Source: Myxococcota bacterium (lineage in GTDB: Bacteria; Myxococcota_A; UBA796; CAJQPC01). From it: a stretch of DNA of 53,205 nt. Below are positions 643 to 45,996 of this stretch, in pieces (within the stretch, counting starts at the first letter, position 1; the number at the start of each line of letters is the position of its first letter). The stretch spans positions 1 to 53,205 of the forward strand of contig JAYZDK010000098.1 of assembly GCA_036337845.1 (NCBI GenBank), given 5' to 3'. Position numbers and translations under genes: made by a program. Under the pieces are notes generated by a model. The model worked only from the letters and a program-made list of their open reading frames with translations, ran no database searches and had not been told where the DNA came from.

Positions 643-1335
643 TCAGTAGTCTTCGGGAAGATGCTCTTCGATATCGCCTGCTGAGATCGAGTTGCGGTTG
701 GTCCAGAGAACCTCAAGCCCCGGGCCCAGCAATGTCAAATTGGGCAGACCAATACTCCCCCCGCCCATGTAGGGCGCATAGACCGAGAAGCCATCGTCAT
801 CGAGCACCGGGTGCGTGAGACCAAAGGTGTTTGCCCACCCTACACGACTGGCCCCATCAGTCATCAGTGTCATGGGCAGAAAGCCTCGGTCACCGTATTC
901 TTCGTATAGCGCCTGAACCTCAGGTGCTGTGGCCACGCAGCCGCCTCACCACTCCGCCGCTCCTTTTAGCAGCACCACCCGGTTGCAGAAGTCGTGGAGG
1001 TCCACCATTTCTCCATGCTGGTCCTCCAGACTGAAGTTCTCCGAGATGTCGCCTACGGAGTTACCCGTGGACTCCACATCGTCTCGGCAAGCATCAATCG
1101 CCCAGCCCCCCATATAGGGCATGTCGTCTTCATCGGTGGGGTCGGTATTCTGTTCGTATTCCTCTAAATCCGTCCAGCCATCGTCATCCGTATCCGGGTT
1201 GTTCGGGTCTGTGCCAAGTTCTGCTTCCTGAGCCTCGGTGAGCCCGTCGTTGTCGTAGTCTTCCCGCTCGGGAACACTGGGAAGACACCCCACCAGCCCC
1301 ACAAAAATCCATGCGTTCCACCGAATAGGCCACAT
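643..1335 (-). CDS. Lipoprotein with thrombospondin-type-3-like acidic repeats fused to a TlpA/ResA-like thioredoxin-fold domain; predicted selenoprotein (in-frame UGA at 946-948 read as Sec in a W-U-G-G-C motif)
   Basis: Track ORFs 946..1365 and 643..936 are in the same frame. They are separated only by TGA (946-948) followed by GGC GGC TGC. The joined protein reads ...FCNRVVLLKGAAEW-U-GGCVATAPEVQALYEEYGDRGFLPMTLMTD...HPVLDDDG...GLPNLTLLGPGLEVLW, the layout of WCxxC redoxins. The N-terminus has a lipobox-like FVGLVGC after Met at 1335 (AGAGGA upstream) and DxDxDG-type repeats (DNDGLTEAQE, DTDDDGWTDLEEY). The start could alternatively be 1365. Confidence 0.75.
908..928 (-). promoter_or_regulatory. 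Candidate bacterial SECIS hairpin downstream of UGA 946-948
   Basis: The minus-strand RNA AGCACCUG-AGGUU-CAGGCGCU begins 17 nt after the UGA. It forms a CCUG/CAGG stem extended by AGC/GCU across an A/C mismatch. The apical loop AGGUU contains GGU ~26-28 nt from the UGA. The same hairpin is conserved in the paralogue. Confidence 0.5.
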
Positions 1336-1375
1336 CAAACATCCTCTGACTCCAAGACTCATCACCTGCTCCGAA

Positions 1376-2068
1376 TCAGTAGTCGTCTGGAAGGTTCGAC
1401 TCGATATCTCCTGCTGTAATCGAGTTGCGGTTTGTCCAAAGGACCTTCAAACCCGGCGCCATCAATGTGAGGTTCGGCATACCAATGCTCCCCCCGCCCA
1501 TGTAGGGCGCATAGACCGAGAAGCCATTGTCATCGAGCACCGGGTGCGTAAGTCCGTGGGCTCCCGCCCACCCTGCAAGGCTGGCCTCATCGGTCAGCAG
1601 TGTCATGGGCAGAAAGCCTTGGTCGCCGTATTCTTCGTATAGCTCCTGAACCTCAGGTGCCTCAGCTACGCAGCCGCCTCACCACTCCGCCGCTGCAATC
1701 AGCAGCACCACCCGATTGCAGAAGTCGTGGAGGTCCACCATTTCTCCATGCTGGTCCTCCAGACTGAAGTTCTCCGAGATGTCGCCTACAGATTTACCCG
1801 TGGCCTCCACCTCGCAGTCATCGATCTGCCAGCCGCCGGTATAAGGCTTGGAATCCGCATTCAAGGGGTCGGTGTTCTCGTCGTACTCCTCCCCATCCGT
1901 CCAGCCATCATCATCGGAGTCCGGATTTTCGGGGTCCGTGCCGAGTGCCTCTTCCACATCACCCAGCAGCCCGTCTCCATCGAGATCCAACGGCAAGGTC
2001 ACCTCAGCTGCCACACAGCCGAGTCCAGAAGACAGACAAAGAGCGATTGGTAGAAAGAGGGTGCGCAT
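1376..2068 (-). CDS. Paralogous lipoprotein with acidic Ca-binding-type repeats and a TlpA/ResA-like thioredoxin fold; predicted selenoprotein (UGA at 1679-1681 read as Sec, W-U-G-G-C)
   Basis: Track ORFs 1679..2107 and 1376..1606 are in the same frame. The 72 nt between them contain no stop and translate to GGCVAEAPEVQELYEEYGDQGFLP. The joined protein reads ...RVVLLIAAAEW-U-GGCVAEAPEV...MTLLTDEAS...HPVLDDNG...GMPNLTLMAPGLKVLW. Met at 2068 gives MRTLFLPIALCLSSGLGC (lipobox-like). Repeats include DLDGDGLLGDVEE and DSDDDGWTDGEEY. The alternative start is 2107. Confidence 0.75.
1642..1660 (-). promoter_or_regulatory. Candidate bacterial SECIS hairpin downstream of UGA 1679-1681
   Basis: The minus-strand RNA is GCACCUG-AGGUU-CAGGAGC. 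It has the same CCUG/CAGG stem and the same AGGUU loop as the paralogue, at the same distance from the UGA. The outer pairs GC/GC lie across an A/A mismatch. Confidence 0.45.
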
Positions 2069-2852: not shown

Positions 2853-4159
2853 AGCCAGCGCTGTTCATGGTGGCCCTGCTCTGCGCATGCCCCCCGAAGG
2901 CCCCCCCAGGCCAGACGAACGAGACCCACATCCAATTGGCGAGCTTCGACTACGCCTGGCAGCGGGTTCAAGACACCTACCACGACCCCAACATGGAGGG
3001 CCTCAACTGGGAGGCTATCCGCGACGAGCTTCGACCCATCGCGGAGCAAGCTACCGACAACGAGAGCCTGCGGGTTGTCCTCCACGACTTGCTGTCTCGA
3101 CTGGATGCTTCTCATTTTCAGGTAGTCCCGCAGTCTCTCTACGAGGTGAGCCACCACGCACCAGCACTCCCAGAGGGCGCCCCAGCCACTCCGCCTCCTT
3201 CCGGCACGGTGGGACTTGAGTTGCGCTGGGTAGAAGACGGATTGAGAGTCACCCAGGTCGCGGAGAACAGCCCAGCCGCGCTGGCAGGAATCCAGAGGGG
3301 CTACACGGTCCTCGCCATTGATGGGTTCAACCCCCAAGCCATCATCAACAACGCACAAGACCTCCACTCCCTACCCCATCTCCTTGCCCGCGCAGCAAAC
3401 AGCGCACTCACGGGCAACCCGGGGTCGGTAGTCACCCTATCGCTGGAAGACACCGAGGCTGTGAGCCTCACTCGGGTGGAGAGCGCAGGTGATGTAGTGC
3501 AGCTTGGATACCTGCCGCCCATCACCGTGGTCTTCGAGCACGCACTCCTAAACCCCGGCAGCCCATCCCTCATCGGCCTGATTCGGTTCAACGCATTCAT
3601 GCAACCTGCGGGAACTCGCTTCACAGAAGCCATGATCGACCTGATCGACCAGAACATCGACGGACTGGTAATCGACCTCCGCGGAAACCCCGGTGGGGTT
3701 GTGGCGATGACCATGGGGATGGCGGGTCATTTCATACCCGAACCCGGTCTGTCCCTGGGCACCATGACCCAGAGACACATGAAACTGACGCTCAAAGTTA
3801 TTCCTCGAGCACCAGCCCAGCAGTTCGACGGGCCCGTGGCCTTCCTGATCGATGAGCTCTCCGCGAGTACCTCCGAGGTCTTTGCGGCGGGCATGCAGTC
3901 CCTGGGGCGTGCACGAGTGTTTGGCAACACCAGCGCAGGTATGGCGCTGCCATCCATATTCGAAGTGCTTCCCAATGGAGACGGCCTGCAGTTCGCGATT
4001 GGAGACCTTCACGGACCTGACGGACAGCGCCTGGAAGGCATGGGCGTCGTTCCCGACACTCCGATAACGCTCACCACATCCGCACTTTCAGCCGGCACCG
4101 ATCCCATCCAAGACGCAGCCATGGCATGGATACTCGCCGAACAACAGGAACATCAATGA
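2849..4159 (+). CDS. S41-family C-terminal processing (tail-specific) peptidase with a PDZ domain
   Basis: PDZ-like segment GLELRWVEDGLRVTQVAENSPAALAGIQRGYTVLAIDG. S41 hallmark VIDLRGNPGG. Nucleophile region IDELSASTSEVFA. Confidence 0.85.
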   Translation: MKPALFMVALLCACPPKAPPGQTNETHIQLASFDYAWQRVQDTYHDPNMEGLNWEAIRDELRPIAEQATDNESLRVVLHDLLSRLDASHFQVVPQSLYEVSHHAPALPEGAPATPPPSGTVGLELRWVEDGLRVTQVAENSPAALAGIQRGYTVLAIDGFNPQAIINNAQDLHSLPHLLARAANSALTGNPGSVVTLSLEDTEAVSLTRVESAGDVVQLGYLPPITVVFEHALLNPGSPSLIGLIRFNAFMQPAGTRFTEAMIDLIDQNIDGLVIDLRGNPGGVVAMTMGMAGHFIPEPGLSLGTMTQRHMKLTLKVIPRAPAQQFDGPVAFLIDELSASTSEVFAAGMQSLGRARVFGNTSAGMALPSIFEVLPNGDGLQFAIGDLHGPDGQRLEGMGVVPDTPITLTTSALSAGTDPIQDAAMAWILAEQQEHQ

Positions 4160-4923
4160 CTCGACTAATCGCGGTTCTCATGGGTATGACAGCCACCGGC
4201 TGCGCAGCCAAAACCCCACCCAACACCACCGAGCCCACAGAAGCACCCACAGTAGCCGCCATTGTGGAACACGCCATTGAAGCCACAGGAGGCCGAGCCA
4301 GGCTGGAGGCCATTGAAAACGCCAGAATCTCTTATTCAGTGTCCATCCCCCAGCAGGGAATCGAGGGCACTCTGTTGGTGCACCACAGCGCTCCAAATCA
4401 GATGATGGCTCAGCAGGAATTTCCCGGACTGGCTGTCGTAAACCAGGGCTACGACGGCACCCACGGATGGGCCACTGACAACTTGATGGGCCCCCGTCTG
4501 TTGGGGGGGGTCGAGCTGGAGACGACCCGACGAGACGCTCACCTCTATTGGCTCATGGATTTCGACACGTACTACCCGGAAGCCACAGTGGCCGAGAGAA
4601 CCGACTTCGCTGGTGAGCCCGCCTGGAAGGTTCAGGCCCAGTCGGCCTGGGATCGAGAAGACGAGTTCTTCTTCCATACGAAAACAGGACTGCAGCTCGG
4701 CGCAATCACCCTGACAGAAACCCCCATGGGCTCCATGCCCATGGAGATTCGTTTCGAAAACTACGAAGATCGCGACGGACTGGTGCTGGCCACTCGACAG
4801 GTCGTCGTTACCGGGCCGGTCGAGATGATCACCGAGCTCGTGGAGTTTGAAATCAACGCCGAGAGCTTTCCCACCATTGAGGTTCCAGAAGACGTGCAGG
4901 CCCTCCTGGAGGCCTCGCCTTAG
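4156..4923 (+). CDS. Hypothetical lipoprotein (possibly a LolA-like fold)
   Basis: The ATG at 4156 overlaps the S41 stop (ATGA) and gives MTRLIAVLMGMTATGC (lipobox). The rest of the 265-aa track ORF is retained. The fold assignment is only an impression. Confidence 0.6.
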   Translation: MTRLIAVLMGMTATGCAAKTPPNTTEPTEAPTVAAIVEHAIEATGGRARLEAIENARISYSVSIPQQGIEGTLLVHHSAPNQMMAQQEFPGLAVVNQGYDGTHGWATDNLMGPRLLGGVELETTRRDAHLYWLMDFDTYYPEATVAERTDFAGEPAWKVQAQSAWDREDEFFFHTKTGLQLGAITLTETPMGSMPMEIRFENYEDRDGLVLATRQVVVTGPVEMITELVEFEINAESFPTIEVPEDVQALLEASP

Positions 4924-8861: not shown

Positions 8862-10226
8862 GTGATCTATTTGATTTCCCTCATTGCAACGGCTCTCTTG
8901 TCCAATCAGGCCTGGGCCACAGAAGTCACGTTGGCTGTTCATGATGCGCCAGGGCCTCCCAGCGAAACCTGTGACCAGGCCCTCTCCAGAAAACCACGGC
9001 CGACCCGAACTACCAGCGGCAACAAACCGCCACCCCCACCGAACATGGACGGCTGGACCCTCCGGAAACTCGTCGATTTGTCTCCCACCGGCCAAGCCCC
9101 TCCCGTGCCAATTGAAGGGGATGAGTCTGTCCTCACTGCCATTGCTTCTATGTTCTCTCGGGCCGATTCCGGAGAAACCATAAGAATCAGCGTGCTCGGA
9201 GCATCCCACACCGAGGCGGACTTCTTCACTGGAGAAATCAGGCGCCAGCTTCAAGACCGGTATGGAGATGCAGGGCACGGGTTTGTGATGCCCGCCGTGC
9301 CCTGGAAAAGCTATCGCGCCCAGGACACAAACCTCTGCTACACGCCACACTGGACAGGGGCCTGGGCGGGAAAAAACGCCAAGACTCCGTTCATGGGGGT
9401 CGGTGGGGTCACAGCCAGCGCCTCAGACCCCAATGCATTCGGATGGGTGGAAACCACGAAGAACAACCCCATGGGACGTACGGTCTCGTCCTGGACCCTC
9501 TTCCTGGAAGGTCGTACCGATGGCGGAGTCTTGCTCGCCGAAATCGACGGAACGTCGCACATACGCCAGTCCACACAGCGGGCCACGCAGGAGCTCATCA
9601 CCCTGCGAATCAATGTGCCGAAAGGCCCCCACCGGATCACACTTCGGCCCGGAGGCGATGGCCCCACAACCCTCCTGGGACTCTCGGCCGAGTCCGGACT
9701 GCCCGGTGTCATCGTAGATTCCATGGGCGTTCGCGGCAGTAGTATTCGCACCTGGAAAAACATGGCAGAAGCCACTTTTGCGCAAGGGTTGAAAACGCTG
9801 GGTCCCGACCTCGTCATTCTTGCTTACGGCACCAACGAGGTTCGTGATCCCCACTACAGCACAGCCGCCTACAGATCCGACTTGGACCACGCCCTTGGTC
9901 TTCTAAAAGACACCCTTCCCGGTGCTGCCTGTCTATTGATAGGCCCCTCCGATCGTTCTCTTCCGGTCACACCGGATACGGTGGCTACCTTTGATCGCAC
10001 CGCCGTATTTGCGGCAGCCCAAAAAGCGGCCGCCAAGCGACACGGCTGTGCCAGCTGGGACTGGCAAAAAGCCACTGGAGGGCCTGGAGCTCAAGCCACC
10101 TGGAACACCCATGAGCCTTCTTGGGTGGCACCCGATTGGGTTCATTTCACACCCGAGGGCTACCGGGAAGTTGCAGGCCTGTTTCTCAGCGCTCTGGAAG
10201 AGGTCGCCCCCTCTATCGGGCAGTAA
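8862..10226 (+). CDS. Secreted SGNH/GDSL-like hydrolase or acyltransferase with a central beta-rich insert (variant block I, GASH)
   Basis: Paralogue of 10213..11682. Block I ISVLGASHTE, block III ILAYGTNE, block V PDWVHFT (DxxH). The in-frame GTG at 8862 gives a signal-like VIYLISLIATALLSNQAWA and avoids a 70-nt overlap with the divergent MMPL gene. The track start is 8781. Confidence 0.6.
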   Translation: MIYLISLIATALLSNQAWATEVTLAVHDAPGPPSETCDQALSRKPRPTRTTSGNKPPPPPNMDGWTLRKLVDLSPTGQAPPVPIEGDESVLTAIASMFSRADSGETIRISVLGASHTEADFFTGEIRRQLQDRYGDAGHGFVMPAVPWKSYRAQDTNLCYTPHWTGAWAGKNAKTPFMGVGGVTASASDPNAFGWVETTKNNPMGRTVSSWTLFLEGRTDGGVLLAEIDGTSHIRQSTQRATQELITLRINVPKGPHRITLRPGGDGPTTLLGLSAESGLPGVIVDSMGVRGSSIRTWKNMAEATFAQGLKTLGPDLVILAYGTNEVRDPHYSTAAYRSDLDHALGLLKDTLPGAACLLIGPSDRSLPVTPDTVATFDRTAVFAAAQKAAAKRHGCASWDWQKATGGPGAQATWNTHEPSWVAPDWVHFTPEGYREVAGLFLSALEEVAPSIGQ

Positions 10227-35848: not shown

Positions 35849-35970
35849 AGGATTCTACTTACCACGGGTTGCAGCCAGGGCTACGTCCTATATCCTTTGC
35901 TGGCGATGTTTTTCCTGTGCAGTTTGGCTTCCAAGCTGGATTTGTTCAATCCCCATCCCGACATGTTTTT

Positions 35971-38900
35971 ATGAGTAGCGCCAACCGCCTGATCGGTGCC
36001 GAGGTCGGCTCCTATACCGTTGTCGACCGACTCGGTCAGGGGGGAATGGCCACCGTGTTTGAGGTCAAACACAAGGAAACCGGCGCCACGCGAGCCTTGA
36101 AGCTGATTCATCCAGGCGTTCAAGATGAAGAAGCGATGACGCGGTTCAATGCCGAGTTTCAGGTGCTCTCTCAACTCAGCCATCCCAACATCACCCGAGT
36201 GTTGGAAGCCGGGTCCTGGAATGACCAGTCCTACTTCGTCATGGAAAAGCTGCAGGGTCAGGACCTGCGCTCCGAGGTGAAGTCCTGGAAAGACATCCCT
36301 CCGGCCGAGCGCTTTTCGAGGACCGAGAACATTCTGGTTCAACTCGTCGGCGCATTGGCCTACATCCATGACCGGGGCTTGATTCACCGGGACGTGTCCC
36401 CCAGCAACATCATGGTGGCTCCAGATGGCTCCGTAAAGCTCATGGACTTCGGCGTGGTGAAGGCACCTGGCCGAGAGGTCACAGCCGTAGGTGAAATGGT
36501 CGGAACTGTGGCCTACATGGCACCCGAACAGATCTCCGGTGACGAGGTGGACTCCAGAGCCGACCTGTACTCTCTGGGAACCGTTCTCTACTTGATGCTC
36601 ACCGGAAAGCGCCCGTTCAACGCACGCACACTCGCCGGATACCTGGAGAAGCACCTGAACCTCCCCCCCCGTCCACCGCGCGAGGTCGACCCGTTTGTTC
36701 CGGCCCGCCTCGACAACATCTGCTTGCGCCTCCTGGAGAAGTCGCCCAGAGACCGCTTTGGTTCGGCGAACCACCTGCTGGCCATACTGGATCGCCACCT
36801 CGCGGGCTTGGAACACATCGATCTCTCGTGCTGGCCCCCTCGCCTGGTCGGTCGGACCAGTGCGACTGCGCACCTTCTGGAAGGCCTTTCCAACGTCTCA
36901 GCGGGTCGGGGAAGCGCCCTGGTTATCGAAGGGACCGCCGGGTTTGGAAAGTCGCGTTTGCTGGCCGACGTGATGGAGCGCGCAATGGAGAGAAACCTCC
37001 CGGTTTCCTCTCACATCTGCATTCCGGACAAGCGTGAGTACGGAGCATTTCAAGAAATCGTCGAATCCCTGGAGCCTGACCGGTCTCAGCTTCCTCCTGC
37101 GTTGATTACCGCTTTTTTTGACGGCGAAAGCGAAGTGGAACGCTACGCGGTGCACGCCGCTGTCCGGGATTTGTTGCGAGAGAAAGGACCACGAGTCTTG
37201 GTACTCGATGACCTTGATAGCGCAGACCGCGGTAGCCAGGAGCTTTTGGTATTTCTCCTCCGCAATCATCTTGAACTCGCCAACGATCCTATTTTGTTCG
37301 TGCTGGCCCGCTGCCCACCCTCCAGCCTCGACATCTTTGCAGACATGCTCTCCGACGAAGACTTCGAATTCGAGCGGGTTCGGCTCCAACATCTGGGCAT
37401 CACCGATGTCGAAGAGCTTCTCGCCCAGTTGATTCCAGCAGACGATAGAGGCAGAAAACTCGCGGAACGGCTGCAGAGAGAGGGAGAAGGCAACCCCACA
37501 TTCATCGCCGAGATGATTCGCGGACTGGTCGAAGAAGGCATCATCCAGATCACGGAGGAGGATGTCTATGAGCTGACCATTCCCATGGAGGAGCTGACGC
37601 GGATTCAACTGCCTCTGCCCACCAACATTCGGGAAGCACTTCGAGAGAGACTGCTGCCTCTATCCAAGAAGGCGCGAGCCTTTGCCTGTATGCTCGCAAT
37701 CTGCAGACAAGAAGTCACGCTGGAGTTGATGATCGAGACCCTTGGGGAAACCGAGGATGACGCACTCGATCGTGTCGAGGAGCTTCTCAATGCAGGCGTC
37801 GCACGGCAACGAACTGCGGGTACCGATGAACTATTCGTGCTCTCTCGACCCCGACTCCGAGACCTGCTCCTCGAAGAAATGGGACCGGAGAACCGCGCCA
37901 TCCTTCACCGGCGAGCCGGTAGCGCGATGGAGCGGATCTTCAGACATCGAGTGGCCATGGTCGTAGACGAGTTGGCCTGGCATTTCGAACAAGGACAAAT
38001 CCCCGCAAAGGCCTACCCCTACCTCATTCGAGCCGGCGAGCGATTGCAGGCGCGTTCTTTCGTCCCGGAAGCCCTGGAGTGCTACGAACGAGCCCTCTCC
38101 ATCGAAGCGGAAGCCCGTGAATTCCTAGTCTTGGATGACGCCGACCGAAGACTCGCCGATCTTCGACTTAAACGCGGGCTGGCCCTCTACCACATGGGGG
38201 CTTGGACCCAAGCCTGTGAAGAACTGGAGCGCTCAGACAGCCTGGCCAGGACCCTCGAAGATGCGAGGCTCCAATGTCGAACGGCCTGTGAGTTGGGCAA
38301 CTTCTTCCGCAGACAGCACCGCCTGGACGAGGCCTCCACCAATCTATCCGAAGCCTTGCTTCTCGCGGATCGTGTCGGTGATCCCAAGCTTCGGGTGGGT
38401 CCCCTGCACGGACTGGCGAGCCTGCACTGGTCCCGGGGAGACCTCGACGCCTCTCGACGGTACTCCCTGGATTGCCTGACGGTGGCCGGAAACATCGGTG
38501 ATGACCGTGCTCTAGGAGACGGCTACAACGGGCTGGGGCTTGTGGCTATCTGCCGTGGCCAGTCCGCGGAAGCTCGCAAATACCTCGATCAGGCAATTCA
38601 GATTTTCGAACGCCTCGGGGTAATCAGTGCCCTGGCTGTGACGCGAATCAACCTGGCCGAGCTTTCTCAATGTACCGGGAATCTACGCAAAGCAATGCAG
38701 CTTGCGGACAAGACCATTGCGCAAGCCCGAGAAGTGCAACACCTGATGGGAATCGCCTTGGGGCTGCGCTACCGATCCATGGTTCTTGTAGACCTGGGCC
38801 GCCTCCCTGATGCCGAAGACAATGCCCGAGAAGCACTTCGGATCACCCAGGAAATCGGAGATGTGGAAGATGAACTCGGCGCACTGATCAGCCTGGTTCG

Positions 38901-39402
38901 AATCCGCCTGGCCAAGGCGCACTATGGAGAGGCCCAGAACGAGCTTGCACGCGCATTGAGCCTGGCCGAGTCCTGTGACGTGGAAGGCTACATGCCCTTG
39001 TTGTGGTCCTGGCTATCCAGATGTCAGGCCGAGCAGGGCTATCTCACGGAAGCCGTGTCCTCACTGGAGCGCGCGAACAACGTTGTCGGTCGAGCCTGGC
39101 CTCACCAACTCTGCCGACTGCACATCACCTCCGCCAGAGCCTTGGCCGCCGCAGGCAAGACCGAGGAAGCCGCAGAACGAGCCGAGCAAGGACTACAACT
39201 CGCAGACGCCTCCGGTTACCGACTCTATGCACTCAAGGCACATACAATCATCGCCGACACAACCAGCAGCCAAGCCAACGAAGCCATGCATCGCCGTGTG
39301 GCTCACGCACTCGCTCGTTCCTTGTCTGCGAACCTGTCACGTGACGATGCCTCCTCCTTCCTCGCCCAATATGGAATCGCCCACCCAGGGGCCTCAGAAT
39401 GA
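35971..39402 (+). CDS. Ser/Thr protein kinase fused to a STAND/AAA_16-type ATPase and TPR repeats (paralogue 1)
   Basis: The ATG at 35971 gives MSSANRLIGAEVGSYTVVDRLGQGGMATVF. VAIK-like RALKL, catalytic loop HRDVSPSN, DFG (LMDFG), APE (YMAPE). Intact Walker A GTAGFGKS at 36931-36954. The C-terminal ~500 aa are TPR-like. Confidence 0.9.
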   Translation: MSSANRLIGAEVGSYTVVDRLGQGGMATVFEVKHKETGATRALKLIHPGVQDEEAMTRFNAEFQVLSQLSHPNITRVLEAGSWNDQSYFVMEKLQGQDLRSEVKSWKDIPPAERFSRTENILVQLVGALAYIHDRGLIHRDVSPSNIMVAPDGSVKLMDFGVVKAPGREVTAVGEMVGTVAYMAPEQISGDEVDSRADLYSLGTVLYLMLTGKRPFNARTLAGYLEKHLNLPPRPPREVDPFVPARLDNICLRLLEKSPRDRFGSANHLLAILDRHLAGLEHIDLSCWPPRLVGRTSATAHLLEGLSNVSAGRGSALVIEGTAGFGKSRLLADVMERAMERNLPVSSHICIPDKREYGAFQEIVESLEPDRSQLPPALITAFFDGESEVERYAVHAAVRDLLREKGPRVLVLDDLDSADRGSQELLVFLLRNHLELANDPILFVLARCPPSSLDIFADMLSDEDFEFERVRLQHLGITDVEELLAQLIPADDRGRKLAERLQREGEGNPTFIAEMIRGLVEEGIIQITEEDVYELTIPMEELTRIQLPLPTNIREALRERLLPLSKKARAFACMLAICRQEVTLELMIETLGETEDDALDRVEELLNAGVARQRTAGTDELFVLSRPRLRDLLLEEMGPENRAILHRRAGSAMERIFRHRVAMVVDELAWHFEQGQIPAKAYPYLIRAGERLQARSFVPEALECYERALSIEAEAREFLVLDDADRRLADLRLKRGLALYHMGAWTQACEELERSDSLARTLEDARLQCRTACELGNFFRRQHRLDEASTNLSEALLLADRVGDPKLRVGPLHGLASLHWSRGDLDASRRYSLDCLTVAGNIGDDRALGDGYNGLGLVAICRGQSAEARKYLDQAIQIFERLGVISALAVTRINLAELSQCTGNLRKAMQLADKTIAQAREVQHLMGIALGLRYRSMVLVDLGRLPDAEDNAREALRITQEIGDVEDELGALISLVRIRLAKAHYGEAQNELARALSLAESCDVEGYMPLLWSWLSRCQAEQGYLTEAVSSLERANNVVGRAWPHQLCRLHITSARALAAAGKTEEAAERAEQGLQLADASGYRLYALKAHTIIADTTSSQANEAMHRRVAHALARSLSANLSRDDASSFLAQYGIAHPGASE

Positions 39403-42400
39403 GACCTCCGGTCACCCCTCCCAAAGTCGGCGATACCCTCGGGGAATACACCCTGGAGAGCCGATTGGGAGCAGGCGGGAATGCAACCGTATTCCGCGCC
39501 AAGGACTCCGATGGAAACACCGTAGCCCTCAAAGTGCTCCATCCAGGTCACCTGTCCGATGAAGACCTCGGCCGATTCAAAAGGGAATATGAAGCCCTCC
39601 AGCTCATCGATCATCCTCAGATCGTCCACGTGTATCGAACCGGGGAAATGGACGGGCAGCGCTGGCTGGCCATGGAGTATATCGACGGAGTCGATCTGGG
39701 CACGCTAGCCGAGAGATGGCAAACCAATCCTCCGGAAGACCGCTGGGAACAATCCGAAAAGATCTTTCGCGGCTTATGCCACGCCCTGATCTACCTGCAC
39801 GGAAAAGGCATCGTGCATCGGGACATCAAGCCTTCCAACGTCCTGGTAGACAAAAACGGCGTGCCCAAACTGATGGACTTCGGTGTGGTCAAGGCACCCG
39901 ACGTCTTCAGTACGGCACTGACCGTAGCGGGCAGGCTTGTCGGCACTGTTGCGTTCATGTCGCCCGAGCAGATTACCGGTGAACCAGTAGACAAACGAAC
40001 AGACCTCTACTCCCTCGGAGCTGTCCTCTACGTACTACTGACAGGCAAACGCCCGATCATCGCAGACACCATTGCAGCCTACCTGGCCCGACAACTGTCC
40101 CAGGAACCCAGACGCCCCGCACTCATCGACCCACAGGTGCCAGCCATTCTGGATCGTATCTGTACCCGGCTTCTGAGAAAGGAGTCCTCTCAGCGATTTG
40201 CCTCTGCAGAAGAAGTGCTCTCCGCTCTCGACAGCGGGGAAGCCGACGAACGGCCTCCCCTCTACGGGAGAGACTCCGCTAGCGGAAGAATCCGAGCACT
40301 ACTGGACCTCTTGGAGGATGGCGGATGCCATGTCCTGGGACTCGTGGGCAAGAAGGGAGCCGGACTCTCGGCGATGATTCGAGAGGCTCAAGCTCAAGCT
40401 CAAGAGCAAGGCCGTGCATTCAGCGTTGTCGACCCCCAAAAAGGCTTGGCAGAGGCCGTCTCCAGAAGACCCGAGACAGGTCCCTGGCTCCTGCTTGCTG
40501 ACGGACTGGACCGCATCCCAGAATGGGAGGTGCGCGACCTTTCCACACTATTCGATGCGCCCAAGAACCCGATCGGGCTGATCTTCACCGCCCAAGCTCA
40601 TACGGGCGAAATGGAGTTGACCATACGAAACCTGGGCGTTCGGGAGCTTCTTGCGCTGCCCTTTGCTCGCACAGAGCTCCTGCCTCCCCTGGACCGTGGA
40701 GACATCATCTCTCTCTTGAGAGACCGAGGACTCTCCTCGACCGTCGCAGCCCTGTTGGGAAAGCGTCTGCACGAAGAGTTCGGCGGTTATCCAGCGCTGT
40801 TGGTCGAACAACTCGACGCCCTAGTCAACGAAGGCTGGCTCGAACGAAAGGACTCCGGGGGACTGAAACCCGCACAAAAGCTCGACCGTCTCCGCAAAGA
40901 CCCCCTCCCTCTACCCGAAGCCGTTCGCATCGAGTTGGAACACTCTCTAATGGGCCTGGAGGCCGAGGAGCGCTCGCAACTCATGCTGTTGGCAGTCCTG
41001 GGTGGGGAAGCCTCCACCGACCTTCTGGGACGACTGGCTGGATTGGGTGTCGATCGATTGGGGCGTCTACAAAGAAACGGGCTTGTAGAAGTACAGGAAG
41101 AAGGTCTCCACAAGCTGATGAAGCTCTCCAGTCCAAGACTGAGGCAAGTACTGCTAGAAGACCTCAAGCCCAGCGAACGAGCACGATTGCACCTAGAAGT
41201 AGCCGAAGCCCTGGCCACCACAAACCCGCGACGCCTCGGCCCGCTCGCAGAGGTTGTCGCCGAGCACTTTCTATCCGCAAACTGTCCGGCCCGAGCATGG
41301 CCCTTACTGGTAGAAGCCGCACAGCGGGGAATTCGTAGAAATCACTTCCCCCAAGTACTCAGCCTGACTCGCAGAGCACTCGAGGCCGCGGACTCCATGG
41401 ATACGGCCCCCCTCGATGCCGAGACAACCGCGCTACACCAGAGAACCCTCTCGCTTAGGGGTCGTGCAATGCTGGCCACAGGCCGCTTTCACGAGGCCCG
41501 CAATTGTCTGAAAGAAGCTCTGGAGATCGGCCTTTCCACAGAAGGCCGTGAAGGACGAAACACCCGAGCCGCGCTGGGAGCAGCCCTGGTAGAGACCGCC
41601 GAGAGCGAAGAGGCGGCCATCATCTTGGAACCACTCCTGGAGGAACTCGAGCCCGGAGACCCCGTAAGGTTTCAAACCGTGCGGGCCTTAGGCCATGCCA
41701 TGCGTCTCCAAGGCCGCCTCGAAGAAGCACTACAGGTTTGGGAAAATGGCTGCGAAGCCGCTCGCCAGCAGGGGCTACTGGAACAAGAAGGCCTATGTCT
41801 TCTCGGATTTGGCCAGACCCTCAAGATCGCCGGCCGTCTTCCAGAAGCTCGAAAGTCACTCCAATCCGCCGAAAATCGCCTCCGTGTTCGAGACTCCAGA
41901 GAGTTGGCGAGTTGTCTTGTGGAACTCGGGGATCTGGATCTCCTGGATGGCTCCTATCGACGCGCACTGGCCCGGGCAGAAGACGCCAGCGCCATCGCAC
42001 AACAAATCGATGACCTCGGCCTATCCGCTGACAGTCTGGTTCTCTGTGCTTCCGCATTGGAAGCGGTGGGCATGGAACGTGATGCTCGCCGCCTGTCTGC
42101 AGAGGCCGATGGACTCCGCCGCGCCCAAGAAGCCGAGGGCCCACTACCAACCTCCAGCATCATTCCCGCTCACGACCAAGTTCGCACCGCCATCTCCGAA
42201 GCTCACCAATACATGTCCACGGACAATTCGGAAGCCGCGCAGGAATGCCTGGAAGCCGCCATCCAAAATCTTCCCGAGAGCGGATGCCGGGGATTGGAAC
42301 TTCAAGTCACTGCAAGGCTCGCGAAACTATCGGAAAATCAGGTGTATCGAGAGCGAGCTACTGAACTGGCCCGCGTGATCATGGACACTCTGCCCCCCGA

Positions 42401-42452
42401 GCTCGCTGCAGCATTTGGCGCAAGAGAAGAGCTCGCGGAGTTACTGGGGTAG
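39399..42452 (+). CDS. Ser/Thr protein kinase fused to a STAND-like module (degenerate P-loop) and TPR repeats (paralogue 2)
   Basis: ATGA overlap with paralogue 1. GAGGNATVF, VALKV, HRDIKPSN, LMDFG, FMSPE. The Walker A position reads GKKGAGLS (40347-40370). Confidence 0.9.
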   Translation: MRPPVTPPKVGDTLGEYTLESRLGAGGNATVFRAKDSDGNTVALKVLHPGHLSDEDLGRFKREYEALQLIDHPQIVHVYRTGEMDGQRWLAMEYIDGVDLGTLAERWQTNPPEDRWEQSEKIFRGLCHALIYLHGKGIVHRDIKPSNVLVDKNGVPKLMDFGVVKAPDVFSTALTVAGRLVGTVAFMSPEQITGEPVDKRTDLYSLGAVLYVLLTGKRPIIADTIAAYLARQLSQEPRRPALIDPQVPAILDRICTRLLRKESSQRFASAEEVLSALDSGEADERPPLYGRDSASGRIRALLDLLEDGGCHVLGLVGKKGAGLSAMIREAQAQAQEQGRAFSVVDPQKGLAEAVSRRPETGPWLLLADGLDRIPEWEVRDLSTLFDAPKNPIGLIFTAQAHTGEMELTIRNLGVRELLALPFARTELLPPLDRGDIISLLRDRGLSSTVAALLGKRLHEEFGGYPALLVEQLDALVNEGWLERKDSGGLKPAQKLDRLRKDPLPLPEAVRIELEHSLMGLEAEERSQLMLLAVLGGEASTDLLGRLAGLGVDRLGRLQRNGLVEVQEEGLHKLMKLSSPRLRQVLLEDLKPSERARLHLEVAEALATTNPRRLGPLAEVVAEHFLSANCPARAWPLLVEAAQRGIRRNHFPQVLSLTRRALEAADSMDTAPLDAETTALHQRTLSLRGRAMLATGRFHEARNCLKEALEIGLSTEGREGRNTRAALGAALVETAESEEAAIILEPLLEELEPGDPVRFQTVRALGHAMRLQGRLEEALQVWENGCEAARQQGLLEQEGLCLLGFGQTLKIAGRLPEARKSLQSAENRLRVRDSRELASCLVELGDLDLLDGSYRRALARAEDASAIAQQIDDLGLSADSLVLCASALEAVGMERDARRLSAEADGLRRAQEAEGPLPTSSIIPAHDQVRTAISEAHQYMSTDNSEAAQECLEAAIQNLPESGCRGLELQVTARLAKLSENQVYRERATELARVIMDTLPPELAAAFGAREELAELLG

Positions 42453-42549
42453 TAGTTCACCCCTAGTCTCGGATAGGCTGGGTGCGTTACTCGAGGCACC
42501 TGTGGCCCAACAGGACCCCCCCGGACAAGACGTCACCGCCCACCTTCAA

Positions 42550-45500
42550 ATGGCGGGCATCACCATCCAACCCGGCGACCGGATTGGCTCCTATGTCTAC
42601 GTCCGGCAGATCGGGGAAGGTGGAATGGCCCACGTCATTTTGGCCCGCGACCCAAATGGGCGAGAGATCGCTCTCAAAATCCTGAAAGCCAGCCGCTTCA
42701 AGACGGGCCTGCCGAGATTCCGGCGAGAGTTTCGCGCACTCTCCAGAATCCAACACCCCAATGTGATCCGCGTCGAAGCCTATGGGGACGTCTACAACCA
42801 TCCATTCATCGCAATGGAGTACGTCGATGGGCCAGACCTACATCAGACCATTCGAGGATTCGCCAAGCTGACCTCAATGGAGGAGCGCTGGCGACGCTGT
42901 GAGGACCTCCTTGTCGATCTCTGCCGCGCACTCGCGCACGTTCACCAGCGCGGGTTGGTCCATCGAGACCTCAAACCCTCAAATATTCTGATCAGTCCAG
43001 AAGGCCGGGCCAAACTAACCGACTTCGGGATCGTCAAAGACCTGGACCCCTCTACCGAACAATCAGCCACCACCACCTTGGTGGGAACCTGGGCGTACAC
43101 ATCGCCCGAACAGATCAGTGGTAAACCACTGGACCACCGCTCCGACCTCTACTCCCTCGGGGTCATCCTGTTTGCAATGCTCACAGGAAGGCGACCCTTC
43201 GCCGCCAAAGACATGGCAGGCTACCGAAAGGCCCATCTTGAACAGATTCCGGTAAACCCTCGAGATGTGAACCCCGGAATCCCCGAACATCTCGACGAGA
43301 TCTGCACGCGCCTTTTATCCAAGCAACCTCGCGATCGTTTTCAATCTGCCCGGGAGATCCTCTACCAGCTCGAACAACTCGAAGAAAATGAGACCGTACC
43401 CGATCTGGAGCACTGGGCTCCGCCCCTCGTCGGAAGGGATGAAGAGACCCACGTTCTGGCCGACGCTGTCAACGCACTCACCCGGGCCGAAGGCGGCATG
43501 GTTTGGATTGAGTCCCCCGAGGGCGGGGGGCGCTCACGCATGCTTGAAACCATGGCAGAGAGAGCCCGAATCATCGGTATTCCCTACCACCGAGCGCGTG
43601 CCGAATCGGTGCTCACAGGCCTCGCCGGCATCGTCTCGGTCTCTCGAGAGGTCGCCACCGAACTCGGCGATCGGGCCCCCAAGAAGCTCCTCGAAGCCCT
43701 GGCAGACTGGATGGAGGGTACCAGTTGGGTGGGTGACGCAGCCTGGCGCCTCCTAGATGGCATGGTGGAGGGCATGGCTCGTCTACTCGAGGATGGCCCA
43801 AGGATCATTCTCTATGACGACTTTCATGCCGTCAGCTCCAGAGAAATGGAGCTGTTCGGCCACCTCATCCGAGTGATGGCTGAACGCGAACTCCCTTTTC
43901 TCGTAGCCATCGCCGTCCGTTCAGACACCAAGGTTACCGAGCTGGAACGCACCCTGGGCACCGAGAGGCTGGGGGTCACACCTACCCATGTCTATCTCCC
44001 TCCCCTCAAAGACAGAGCCATTCTGGAGCTGACCCAGAGCCTGCTGGGAACCGGCGAAAAGTCCAAAGTCCTAGCCAAACGCCTGGCCAGCGAGACCGAG
44101 GGCAACCCCCTGTTCATCGCCCAGTTCCTGGCCAACCTGATTCAGCGTGGCGTGTTGGTCCCTCAGATTGGTGGCCGCATGTCCCTGACAGTAGACGCCA
44201 CAGAAATCGCCACTGGACACCTGGAGTTTCCGCCAGGTGTCCGACAACTGCTGCAAAATCGCCTGGACGACCTCAAGCCAGGTTCTATGCGTGTCCTACA
44301 GACCCTGGCTGTCGGTGGCCGAGAAACCCAGCTCGAGCTCACATTGGCTGTATTGGACGAGGATGAGGACGACGTCCTGGACCGGCTCGATATCCTTCTG
44401 GACCGTGGTGTCATTCGGGAGCGTCGGAGCGGCCACCTGATCCACCATGAAATCAGCCACCGGCTTCTTTCCGATCTAGTCTATCGACAGTTGGACCCAG
44501 AACAACGCACCCTCCTACACCGCCGCATGGCCAGAGCCCTGGAGGTACAGTTCTCCTCCAATCCCGCAGCGGCTGAACTCGTAGGCGATCACTACCGGCT
44601 CGCAGGAGAAGCGGGAAGAGCCTATCGACACCTGGTCGCAGCCGCTAGTCGGGCACTGGCACGTTCACTGCCCGCCGAGGCCTGGGAAATCTCCAACCGT
44701 TCGCTTGCAATCGAAGACCTGGCACGAGTCGATCTCGGGCGCGGCGAGCTTGAAGAAAGCCGAGCGCGGCTTCTCCGAATCCGGGCCGATGTTCAATACG
44801 GCCGCGGCCAATGGGAAGAGTGTCGAACCACATTGGAAGCCTTGCTGGGGCTCTGCAAGCTCACAGGCAATGAATGGGCAGGCCTTCGAGCAGAGATAGA
44901 GATGGGACGCGTACTCGATCGACTCAACGACTCAGAAGCTTCGATGGAGTGCTTCAAGAACGCCTTGAAAATGGCCCGAAAGCTCAAAGACCGCGAGGGC
45001 GTCGCAGAGACTCTTGCTGCCCAATCTGCTGGATATTGGGATGCCGGAAACATGGAAAAATGCGAGCAACTGGCCAGTGAAGGGCTGATTCTGGCCGTCG
45101 GAGAGTCCATGAAACGGATTCGAGCCGAGTTGTTGTTGGCCGCGACAGCTGCGCAAGCCTTCCAAGGACAACTCTCGCAAGCAGCAACAGGCATGGCCGA
45201 GGCAGAGCGCATCTTTCGAGAACTCGGACAAAAGCGCACTCGAGTGGTCGCCCTCTGCAACCTCAGTGAGCTTCTCCTGTGGCAAGGAGAGATCGCCGAC
45301 TCAAACCGCCGGGTCTCCACTGCCCACAACGATGCCAAAGAACTGGGATACGCACTGGGCATGGCAAGCTCCCTGAGGCTGCGTGGAGAGCTGGAGTTGG
45401 AAACGGGCCAGGTTGAGCGTGCCGAGAAGACACTTCGAGGAGCTGTCGAGCTGGCCACAAGCCTGAACCTGGTCGCCGACATGATCTCGGGCCGGTTTGC

Positions 45501-45996
45501 TCTCGCCCGGTTGTACGCCGAACGGGAAGACCCCGTAGAAACAGAGGCCCAGGTCTCCGTAGCGAGGGTGCTGGCAAGCAAGAGAGACCCCGAGCAATTT
45601 GCACCCGCACTCGTCGCGCTGCATGGCTGGTCCTGCGCCATGACCGGAGACGCATCCGATGCCCGTCGAATGTTCAGCAACGCCGAACGCTCCGTCACCA
45701 AGGCCCCTCTACCCCGGCGTTGCCAGGTGCTGATTACCTGTGCCCGAGGGTTCCATGTGCTGGGCGTCAGCCGCGAAGCTCAGCGGTTGGCAACCCTCGC
45801 TGCAACCATGGCCTCAACCAACGGCTTCAGACTCCGAAATCTCGAGGCTCGTCATATGCTGTCCACCATCCAGGAAGACCCTGCGGCCGCCCAGGCCTAC
45901 CACTCGGAGTCGCAGGGAATCGCACGAACGTTCATGGAAGAACTGGAACCCGAGCAGGCTGCAGCCTTCAGAAAGAAATACGCCGACCTGCTCTAG
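42550..45996 (+). CDS. Ser/Thr protein kinase fused to a STAND-like module (degenerate P-loop) and TPR repeats (paralogue 3)
   Basis: The in-frame ATG at 42550 gives MAGITIQPGDRIGSYVYVRQIGEGGMAHV. IALKI, HRDLKPSN, LTDFG, YTSPE. The Walker A position reads SPEGGGRS (43513-43536). The track start is 42415. Confidence 0.9.
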   Translation: MAGITIQPGDRIGSYVYVRQIGEGGMAHVILARDPNGREIALKILKASRFKTGLPRFRREFRALSRIQHPNVIRVEAYGDVYNHPFIAMEYVDGPDLHQTIRGFAKLTSMEERWRRCEDLLVDLCRALAHVHQRGLVHRDLKPSNILISPEGRAKLTDFGIVKDLDPSTEQSATTTLVGTWAYTSPEQISGKPLDHRSDLYSLGVILFAMLTGRRPFAAKDMAGYRKAHLEQIPVNPRDVNPGIPEHLDEICTRLLSKQPRDRFQSAREILYQLEQLEENETVPDLEHWAPPLVGRDEETHVLADAVNALTRAEGGMVWIESPEGGGRSRMLETMAERARIIGIPYHRARAESVLTGLAGIVSVSREVATELGDRAPKKLLEALADWMEGTSWVGDAAWRLLDGMVEGMARLLEDGPRIILYDDFHAVSSREMELFGHLIRVMAERELPFLVAIAVRSDTKVTELERTLGTERLGVTPTHVYLPPLKDRAILELTQSLLGTGEKSKVLAKRLASETEGNPLFIAQFLANLIQRGVLVPQIGGRMSLTVDATEIATGHLEFPPGVRQLLQNRLDDLKPGSMRVLQTLAVGGRETQLELTLAVLDEDEDDVLDRLDILLDRGVIRERRSGHLIHHEISHRLLSDLVYRQLDPEQRTLLHRRMARALEVQFSSNPAAAELVGDHYRLAGEAGRAYRHLVAAASRALARSLPAEAWEISNRSLAIEDLARVDLGRGELEESRARLLRIRADVQYGRGQWEECRTTLEALLGLCKLTGNEWAGLRAEIEMGRVLDRLNDSEASMECFKNALKMARKLKDREGVAETLAAQSAGYWDAGNMEKCEQLASEGLILAVGESMKRIRAELLLAATAAQAFQGQLSQAATGMAEAERIFRELGQKRTRVVALCNLSELLLWQGEIADSNRRVSTAHNDAKELGYALGMASSLRLRGELELETGQVERAEKTLRGAVELATSLNLVADMISGRFALARLYAEREDPVETEAQVSVARVLASKRDPEQFAPALVALHGWSCAMTGDASDARRMFSNAERSVTKAPLPRRCQVLITCARGFHVLGVSREAQRLATLAATMASTNGFRLRNLEARHMLSTIQEDPAAAQAYHSESQGIARTFMEELEPEQAAAFRKKYADLL

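Follow-up and report, generated by a model that had tools for sequence, protein, structure and literature searches.

Two tandem genes in a contig of a metagenome-assembled genome (MAG) of an uncultured marine bacterium, labelled "Myxococcota bacterium" in GenBank, are predicted to encode selenoproteins. The proteins would be exported, ResA/TlpA-like, and carry selenocysteine (Sec, U) in place of the catalytic cysteine; we put the probability of this reading at roughly 0.88. The stretch analyzed, called the window hereafter, is the complete contig of 53,205 bp (JAYZDK010000098.1), and both genes lie on its minus strand, gene A at 643–1335 and gene B at 1376–2068. A preliminary description of this DNA had taken them for unannotated selenoproteins with Sec at the first Cys of the WCxxC motif in a TlpA/ResA/redoxin fold. 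The proposal is supported by Pfam matches that span an in-frame TGA, by the alignment with ResA, by a column that holds either Sec or Cys among the homologues, by the ratio of nonsynonymous to synonymous substitution rates (dN/dS) in the downstream frame, and by the local nature of the recoding.

The in-frame TGA and its place in a thioredoxin fold

Each gene comprises 230 codons and has a read-through structure. Gene A starts with ATG at 1335–1333 and ends with TGA at 645–643, and gene B starts with ATG at 2068–2066 and ends with TGA at 1378–1376; these and all feature positions given below for the two genes refer to the minus strand. Exactly one in-frame stop interrupts each gene, and in both it is a TGA at codon 130, located at 946–948 in gene A and 1679–1681 in gene B. 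The context is ...AAEW-TGA-GGC-GGC-TGC, which would be read as W-U-G-G-C with U130 and C133, and 100 open codons follow. The list of open reading frames (ORFs) splits each gene into two same-frame ORFs, and GenBank retains the N-terminal 129 residues only, as the hypothetical proteins VX519_05305 (gene A) and VX519_05315 (gene B). The split ORFs, the AAEW before the TGA, the GGC GGC TGC after it, and the open downstream frame with its thioredoxin-fold motifs had all been reported in the preliminary description. Every one of these is borne out in both copies, the TGA positions exactly; only the strand had been left unnamed.

The stop at codon 130 was replaced by Cys for the domain searches. Pfam AhpC-TSA (PF00578, cut-off 26 bits) then spans the TGA position with 37.2 bits (E=3e-9) in gene A and 48.5 bits (E=1e-12) in gene B, and Redoxin (PF08534, cut-off 26.6 bits) does so with 33.8 bits (E=4e-8) and 42.1 bits (E=1e-10), respectively. 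When a profile of the family is compared with the PDB, the best solved structure is Bacillus subtilis ResA (1st9, E=1.6e-15), and W-[U/C]-x-x-C is aligned on W-C-E-P-C. Similarly, an AlphaFold2 model of P0007, a Cys-containing homologue 42% identical to gene B, has a predicted local distance difference test (pLDDT) score of 90.4 and places Cys137 between a strand (127–133) and a helix (138–157). The model displays a thioredoxin fold in which the first long helix has CxxC at its N-terminal end. Foldseek searches with it return ResA structures as the best matches, with template modelling (TM) scores of 0.80–0.84 normalized to the target, followed by TlpA-like proteins, DsbE/DsbF and Etrx1/2.

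Taken together, the Pfam span, the ResA alignment and the P0007 model show that the TGA coincides exactly with the nucleophilic Cys in a CxxC site of the ResA/TlpA type. In both genes the position of the TGA corresponds to the first WCxxC cysteine of the Cys homologues, and the coincidence anticipated for redoxin-type profiles is found. The catalytic domain comprises residues 94–230 of each protein. It lies at 646–1056 in gene A, as defined by Pfam and the PDB profile search, and at 1379–1789 in gene B, where the homologue model and Foldseek are added to the same two lines of evidence.

The two genes are assigned by these scores to the TlpA/ResA-like superfamily (cd02966) and are not orthologues of ResA or TlpA, since the NCBIfam models give 47.4 bits against a cut-off of 170 for ResA and 26.4 bits against 230 for TlpA. 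A peroxiredoxin proper was considered and rejected. The PxxxTxxC/U motif is absent, the site AAEW-U-GG-C being a thioredoxin-type UxxC, and the thiol peroxidase model gives 20.7 bits against a cut-off of 140. Two other cysteines, C85 and C117 in the numbering of gene B, are almost invariant across the homologues and may form a structural disulfide.

Homologues, candidate hairpins and other readings of the TGA

A search of 5.8 billion proteins yielded two classes of relatives, full-length proteins of about 230–280 residues with WCxxC, and many proteins of about 130 residues that end at ...W, ...T or ...S. DNA from metagenome contigs and GTDB genomes was read for another 18 genes of the TGA form, and the DNA of 7 Cys-form genes was read as well. 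Genome and metagenome scans keyed on the thrombospondin type 3 (TSP3) repeat produced 160 loci, among which only L003–L012 and L083–L088 are family members. With the two window copies included, 20 gene copies carry TGA at the column in question, never TAA or TAG, and Cys stands after the next two residues. Their terminal stops are a mixture of TGA and TAG. The same column is TGC or TGT in the 7 Cys-form genes, and WCxxC occurs in further full-length homologues in the databases.

The 18 TGA forms outside the window come from other contigs and share 35–65% identity with the window proteins. Between U and C, the TGA forms carry different pairs of residues (GG, GS, GT, GA, PG, PS, PP, PV, ST, AG and RG), and these forms therefore represent independent lineages rather than copies. 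About 100 codons remain open past the TGA in 19 of the 20 copies (17 of the 18 non-window ones), the exception being L011, in which the frame breaks after 25 codons. Orthologues with Cys at this codon had been proposed earlier as a check, and scattered stops as a sign of decay. The former were found, while the latter were not seen in the genes read: there is one stop, in one column.

The frame downstream of the TGA is under purifying selection, as estimated from dN/dS. The values after the TGA are 0.12/0.47 (about 0.26) for gene A against gene B and 0.16/0.72 for L001 against L002b, and the frame before the TGA shows selection of the same strength.

As an ordinary stop, too, TGA is used more often in the window than any other codon, terminating 17 of 34 Pfam-supported ORFs, including genes A and B themselves. 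The S41 peptidase gene, which had been cited earlier as an instance, indeed ends with TGA at 4157–4159. The recoding is therefore local, and no change of the genetic code is involved. A script search of the window for further TGA-split ORFs gave noise only (overlaps with longer ORFs on other frames) and no second selenoprotein candidate.

Downstream of each TGA lies a candidate bacterial Sec insertion sequence (SECIS) hairpin, at 909–927 in gene A (GCACCUGA-GGU-UCAGGCGC) and at 1642–1660 in gene B (GCACCUGA-GGU-UCAGGAGC). Together they read GCACCUGA-GGU-UCAGG(C/A)GC, with GGU as the apical loop; the hairpin of gene B has 7 base pairs that flank a 1x1 mismatch. The stem begins 21 nucleotides after the U of UGA and the loop 26 nucleotides after UGA, and the hairpins are part of the minimum-energy fold. 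Hairpins were scored by requiring 4 bp or more in the stem, 3–7 nucleotides in the loop with G in its first two bases, and a loop position 16–37 nucleotides after UGA, limits which we take to be those of bSECISearch. The position and the G-containing loop of the window hairpins agree with the published description of bacterial SECIS elements.

A simple comparison of the best hairpin per gene did not separate Sec from Cys forms, and tests based on the above limits and on synonymous shuffling were used instead. Of the 19 Sec forms tested, 18 have a qualifying hairpin, as do 4 of the 7 Cys forms. Against 1000 synonymous-codon shuffles per gene, the Fisher combined p is 3e-4 for the Sec forms and 0.68 for the Cys forms, and the hairpin energies of the Sec forms lie below those of the Cys forms (Mann-Whitney p=0.008). 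An unbiased free-energy test over nucleotides 13–51 gives a combined p of 0.012 for the Sec forms (0.004 when non-redundant) and 0.33 for the Cys forms. The hairpins are compatible with SECIS elements but do not prove them; taken as a group they have moderate support, and the window copies by themselves have weak support.

Several observations weigh against Sec insertion in these genes. No selA, selB, selD or tRNA-Sec was found in the 53-kb window or in the loci fetched for the homologues, which are all that was searched. ARAGORN detects no tRNA at all in the window and no tRNA-Sec in the fetched loci, Pfam annotation of about 40 window ORFs shows no selA, selB or selD, and tblastn with an E. 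coli SelD query has no match in the fetched loci. The hairpins of the two window genes, which are short, are individually non-significant, with p of about 0.3–0.4 in synonymous shuffles. In the unbiased minimum-free-energy test the absolute energies do not differ significantly between Sec and Cys forms, the p of 0.012 being that of the Sec group only. No Rfam SECIS model matches the whole window at the gathering threshold, and at E<=10 the region 600–2150 gives chance matches only.

Moreover, the evidence from one window copy does not add independently to that from the other. An 89-nucleotide tract, at 968–1056 in gene A and 1701–1789 in gene B, differs by a single mismatch, and the DNA identity of the two copies is 90–100% in the surroundings of the TGA, with 90–95% around the TGA and hairpin, 62–77% in the N-terminal part and 62–85% over the genes otherwise. 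This mosaic suggests gene conversion or a recent, possibly partial, duplication. As evidence, therefore, the two window TGAs amount to one case rather than two. The earlier argument that the TGA persists in paralogues with diverged N-termini describes both features correctly, but it is a weak one, since the surroundings of the TGA are nearly identical.

Instead of Sec, the UGA might be read as Trp, Cys or Gly by a suppressor or near-cognate tRNA or through a lineage-specific change of code. The lack of Sec machinery in the window and the fetched loci would fit such read-through, and so would a database entry, P0010 (L167, 115–864), in which a JGI gene call gives "WWGSC" with Trp at the Sec position. 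However, the DNA of P0010 has W-TGA-GSC, so that the Trp is an artefact of a caller that evidently used a TGA=Trp code. Neither does a code change accord with TGA ending half of the supported window ORFs, A and B among them. The column is the catalytic nucleophile and is Cys in homologues, which is the classic Sec/Cys pattern; the SECIS-type hairpin goes with the TGA forms and not with the Cys forms; and the family is already among the listed marine selenoproteins. Non-Sec read-through is accordingly very unlikely.

We regard as equally improbable that termination at UGA dominates, the functional product being a 129-residue TSP3 lipoprotein with its C-terminal half unmade or made from an internal start. 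UGA-Sec decoding is typically inefficient and some truncated product is likely, and in gene A a GTG stands four codons past the TGA. Nevertheless, gene B offers no possible start until 24 codons past the TGA, so that internal starts differ even between the two copies, and the stop would separate strand beta-1 of the thioredoxin fold from the active-site helix. The Cys-form homologues are single polypeptides of the same architecture, and the equal strength of selection on both sides of the TGA is at odds with a dispensable second half.

The third alternative, in which the genes are pseudogenes with a true premature stop and a decaying downstream part, or the TGAs are sequencing or assembly errors, can appeal to the truncated products given by GenBank and other gene callers and to the lack of Sec machinery on this contig, but is effectively refuted already by 20 copies (18 of them the diverged ones from other contigs) with exactly one stop that is always TGA and always in the same column, by the open frame in 19 of them and by a post-TGA dN/dS of about 0.25. 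Sec at codon 130 is thus the reading that we prefer for both genes.

The homologues also display variation around the active site. Locus L164 contains a tandem pair of paralogues in one genome, a Sec form at 1320–2021 (FW-U-GTC) and a Cys form at 2111–2812 (IW-C-PSC). Four forms have T-U-x-x-C instead of W-U-x-x-C, namely L002 10001–10705, L005, L006 and L163 7791–8513, with the motifs ET-U-PPC, FT-U-STC and FT-U-RGC. In some full-length members, P0008, P0018 and P0013, one redox residue or both are no longer present (WHGPS, WASTA and WCLPQ), and these may be catalytically inactive paralogues. The MAGs with L003, L011 and L012, which are clear family members, are labelled "uncultured Rickettsiales" or "Klebsiella pneumoniae"; these are probably taxonomic mislabels of Myxococcota-like bins.

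Protein architecture and known relatives

Both products are predicted to be 230-residue lipoproteins, composed of a lipobox signal peptide, two to three Asp-rich TSP3-type repeats, and the ResA/TlpA-like domain with W-U-G-G-C. The signal peptide of gene A, MWPIRWNAWIFVGLVG-C17, is encoded at 1285–1335, and that of gene B, MRTLFLPIALCLSSGLG-C18, at 2015–2068. The lipobox was identified by a match to the pattern [LIVMFYSTAGCQ]-[AGS]-C, of the PROSITE PS51257 type. The pattern is matched at C17 in gene A, at C18 in gene B and in 26 of 30 sequences checked. The repeats lie at 1120–1260 in gene A and at 1844–1993 in gene B, where they read DLDGDGLL..., DSDDDGWTDGEE..., and they resemble calcium-binding repeats of the bacterial TSP3 type. 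TSP3_bac (PF18884) scores 24.3 bits in gene A and 22.6 bits in gene B, both just under the gathering threshold of 25 bits, with DxDxDG motifs visible in each. The same family is precomputed for nearly all homologues, and the repeat region of the P0007 model is confident. The lipoprotein signal and TSP3-type repeats that had been noticed from the sequence are therefore present, the latter marginally below the Pfam cut-off.

The family has been catalogued already as a selenoprotein family. Among the Global Ocean Sampling (GOS) reads, Zhang and Gladyshev described a marine-enriched, pfam08534-like group, "Prx-like 3", with UxxC and 68 Sec reads (2008, PLoS Genet, PMC2398784). One read listed there under "#Prx-like 3", JCVI_READ_1091139219293 (DFELQDQDGNMVRLYDFCAQAILLVSAADWUGACHGEAP...), is 43% identical to gene B over 122 residues (E=4e-35), and both have W-U-G-x-C-x-x-E-A-P. 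For a read that represents the main group, identity is 27% (E=1e-12), with W-U-G-G-C-x-A-E-A-P in both. The same paper reported Prx-like 3 also as a fusion to an "Unknown_3" domain. According to our reading of the alignment, which is not that of the paper, Unknown_3 may consist of TSP3-like Asp-rich repeats of the form DxDxDGxxDxxDNC. The reported fusion differs from the window genes, however, in that its repeats are C-terminal and contain Cys, whereas those of the window genes are N-terminal and Cys-free. As it had single reads only, the paper gives no full-length architecture, lipoprotein signal, N-terminal repeat position, tandem arrangement, taxonomy or neighbourhood.

UxxC thioredoxin-fold selenoproteins from marine metagenomes have been known since 2005 (PMC1088965) and are tabulated in a 2026 review (PMC13188914). 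Two of them from the Sargasso Sea, "Prx-like" (RGxW-U-P-x-C) and "Thiol-disulfide isomerase-like" (DW-U-T-W-C), are marine UxxC proteins of this fold. Identity of the window genes with either was rejected, as the motifs differ and HDFC and GTDP, motifs of the present family, are absent from the sequence supplement of PMC1088965. Another selenoprotein with a TlpA/ResA-like fold is the ResA-like WAxxUGC family of NCBIfam (NF041054), in which Sec occupies a different position, W-A-x-x-U-G-C as against W-U-x-x-C. Membership in NF041054 was likewise rejected, with 24.6 bits against a cut-off of 300 and a W-U-G-G-C motif in the window genes. No NCBIfam model captures the family.

The best matches in both sequence and structure are ResA of B. 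subtilis and TlpA of Bradyrhizobium, which have W-C-x-x-C at the same position. Both are membrane-tethered, extracytoplasmic thiol-disulfide reductases (cd02966), and the window proteins are predicted to be tethered likewise. The differences are Sec in place of the N-terminal Cys, a lipid anchor with TSP3 repeats rather than a transmembrane helix, NCBIfam scores far under the cut-offs, and the lack of cytochrome c maturation or Sco/Cox genes nearby in the Pfam annotation of about 40 window ORFs.

Etrx1 and Etrx2 of Streptococcus pneumoniae (PDB 2yp6, 4hqz and 4hqs) are among the top PDB matches, with E of about 2e-14 and Foldseek TM scores of 0.75–0.81 normalized to the target. They are surface-exposed lipoproteins with a TlpA-like thioredoxin domain. 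Unlike the window proteins, they contain Cys rather than Sec, have no TSP3 repeats, and come from a Gram-positive host. The partner of Etrx1 and Etrx2 is methionine sulfoxide reductase, and no gene for this enzyme was seen in the window by the same Pfam annotation.

In the preliminary description, neither the fusion to a lipoprotein signal and TSP3-like repeats nor the tandem arrangement was recognized as known. As a claim of novelty this is overstated: the family and its association with Asp-rich repeats are already in the 2008 GOS data, but the lipoprotein architecture with N-terminal repeats and the tandem arrangement are new. Single GOS reads were all that had been known of the family, and its full-length architecture is thereby provided. 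Also new are the arrangement of Sec/Sec and Sec/Cys genes in tandem, the variants with T-U-x-x-C, the assignment of the family to Myxococcota-type MAGs, some of which are labelled otherwise, and the conserved downstream gene described below. A recurrent mis-annotation is documented as well, for many metagenomic homologues are also recorded as "hypothetical" fragments of 129–136 residues and one is mistranslated with Trp. Such mis-annotation will recur because no NCBIfam model covers the family; the alignment and Sec column defined here could support a model of that type. The finding leaves the knowledge of Sec biology unchanged, and its novelty is modest.

Gene neighbourhood and a possible envelope function

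The next gene on the same strand, at 2–595, is cut by the contig end after its N-terminal 198 residues. It is a homologue of an immunoglobulin-like (Ig-like; Big_1/Invasin_D3) protein of about 830 residues and is 49% identical to the protein of L001. The corresponding Ig-like genes are at 9305–11809 in L001, 11546–14062 in L002, 8585–13513 in L163 and 2886–4709 in L164. In L001, L002 and L164 the Ig-like gene immediately follows that of the selenoprotein, and this order persists in diverged relatives. L163 has two Ig-like genes after the selenoprotein gene, the reported match being the second one, and only the L163 homologue shows an outer-membrane beta-barrel match.

If Sec is inserted, the proteins could work as follows. 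UGA codon 130 would be decoded as Sec in a SelB-dependent manner, aided by the small hairpin about 20 nucleotides downstream. After export, the proteins would be held in the cell envelope by their lipid anchor. Sec130 would be the nucleophile that attacks substrate disulfides or oxidized cysteines, and Cys133 would resolve the intermediate through a selenenylsulfide, so that the enzyme would cycle between the selenolate/thiol and selenenylsulfide forms. In this way it would reduce or isomerize disulfides or oxidized cysteines of envelope proteins and be recharged, presumably, by a membrane electron donor of the CcdA/DsbD type. A reductase role with such recharging is suggested by likeness to ResA, TlpA and Etrx; which way the electrons flow, what donates them and what the substrate is are all inferences.

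The product of the Ig-like gene immediately downstream, possibly an outer-membrane protein, is a candidate substrate. It is conceivable, though we think it rather unlikely, that the Sec lipoprotein and the Big_1/invasin-type protein work together as a dedicated redox module in the envelope of marine Myxococcota, in which a selenoenzyme services a surface adhesin-like protein. Were this so, it would provide, to our knowledge, the first tractable bacterial UxxC selenoprotein working outside the cytoplasm, and the Sec/Cys tandem pair of L164 and the W-U and T-U variants would allow comparison. The Ig-like protein of L001 has only 3 Cys.

The gene order around the selenoprotein genes is shared with L001 and L002, where a membrane protein of 230 residues and an S41 peptidase lie upstream in divergent orientation. 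In the window two plus-strand genes for conserved proteins flank the S41 peptidase gene, and both are syntenic in L001 and L002. The one at 2151–2852 encodes 233 residues, among them a signal peptide and a transmembrane segment at the C-terminus, and the one at 4126–4923 encodes a protein of 265 residues; neither has a Pfam or NCBIfam match.

The remaining Pfam content of the window is typical of Myxococcota and includes Ser/Thr kinases with TPR, an MMPL transporter, GDSL lipases, MBOAT and a gliding-type ABC system. Three large Ser/Thr protein kinase genes with TPR, one after another (1177, 1017 and 1193 residues) occupy 35869–45996 on the plus strand. The first and third of them also contain an AAA ATPase, and a PP2C phosphatase gene precedes the three, content typical of Myxococcota signalling.

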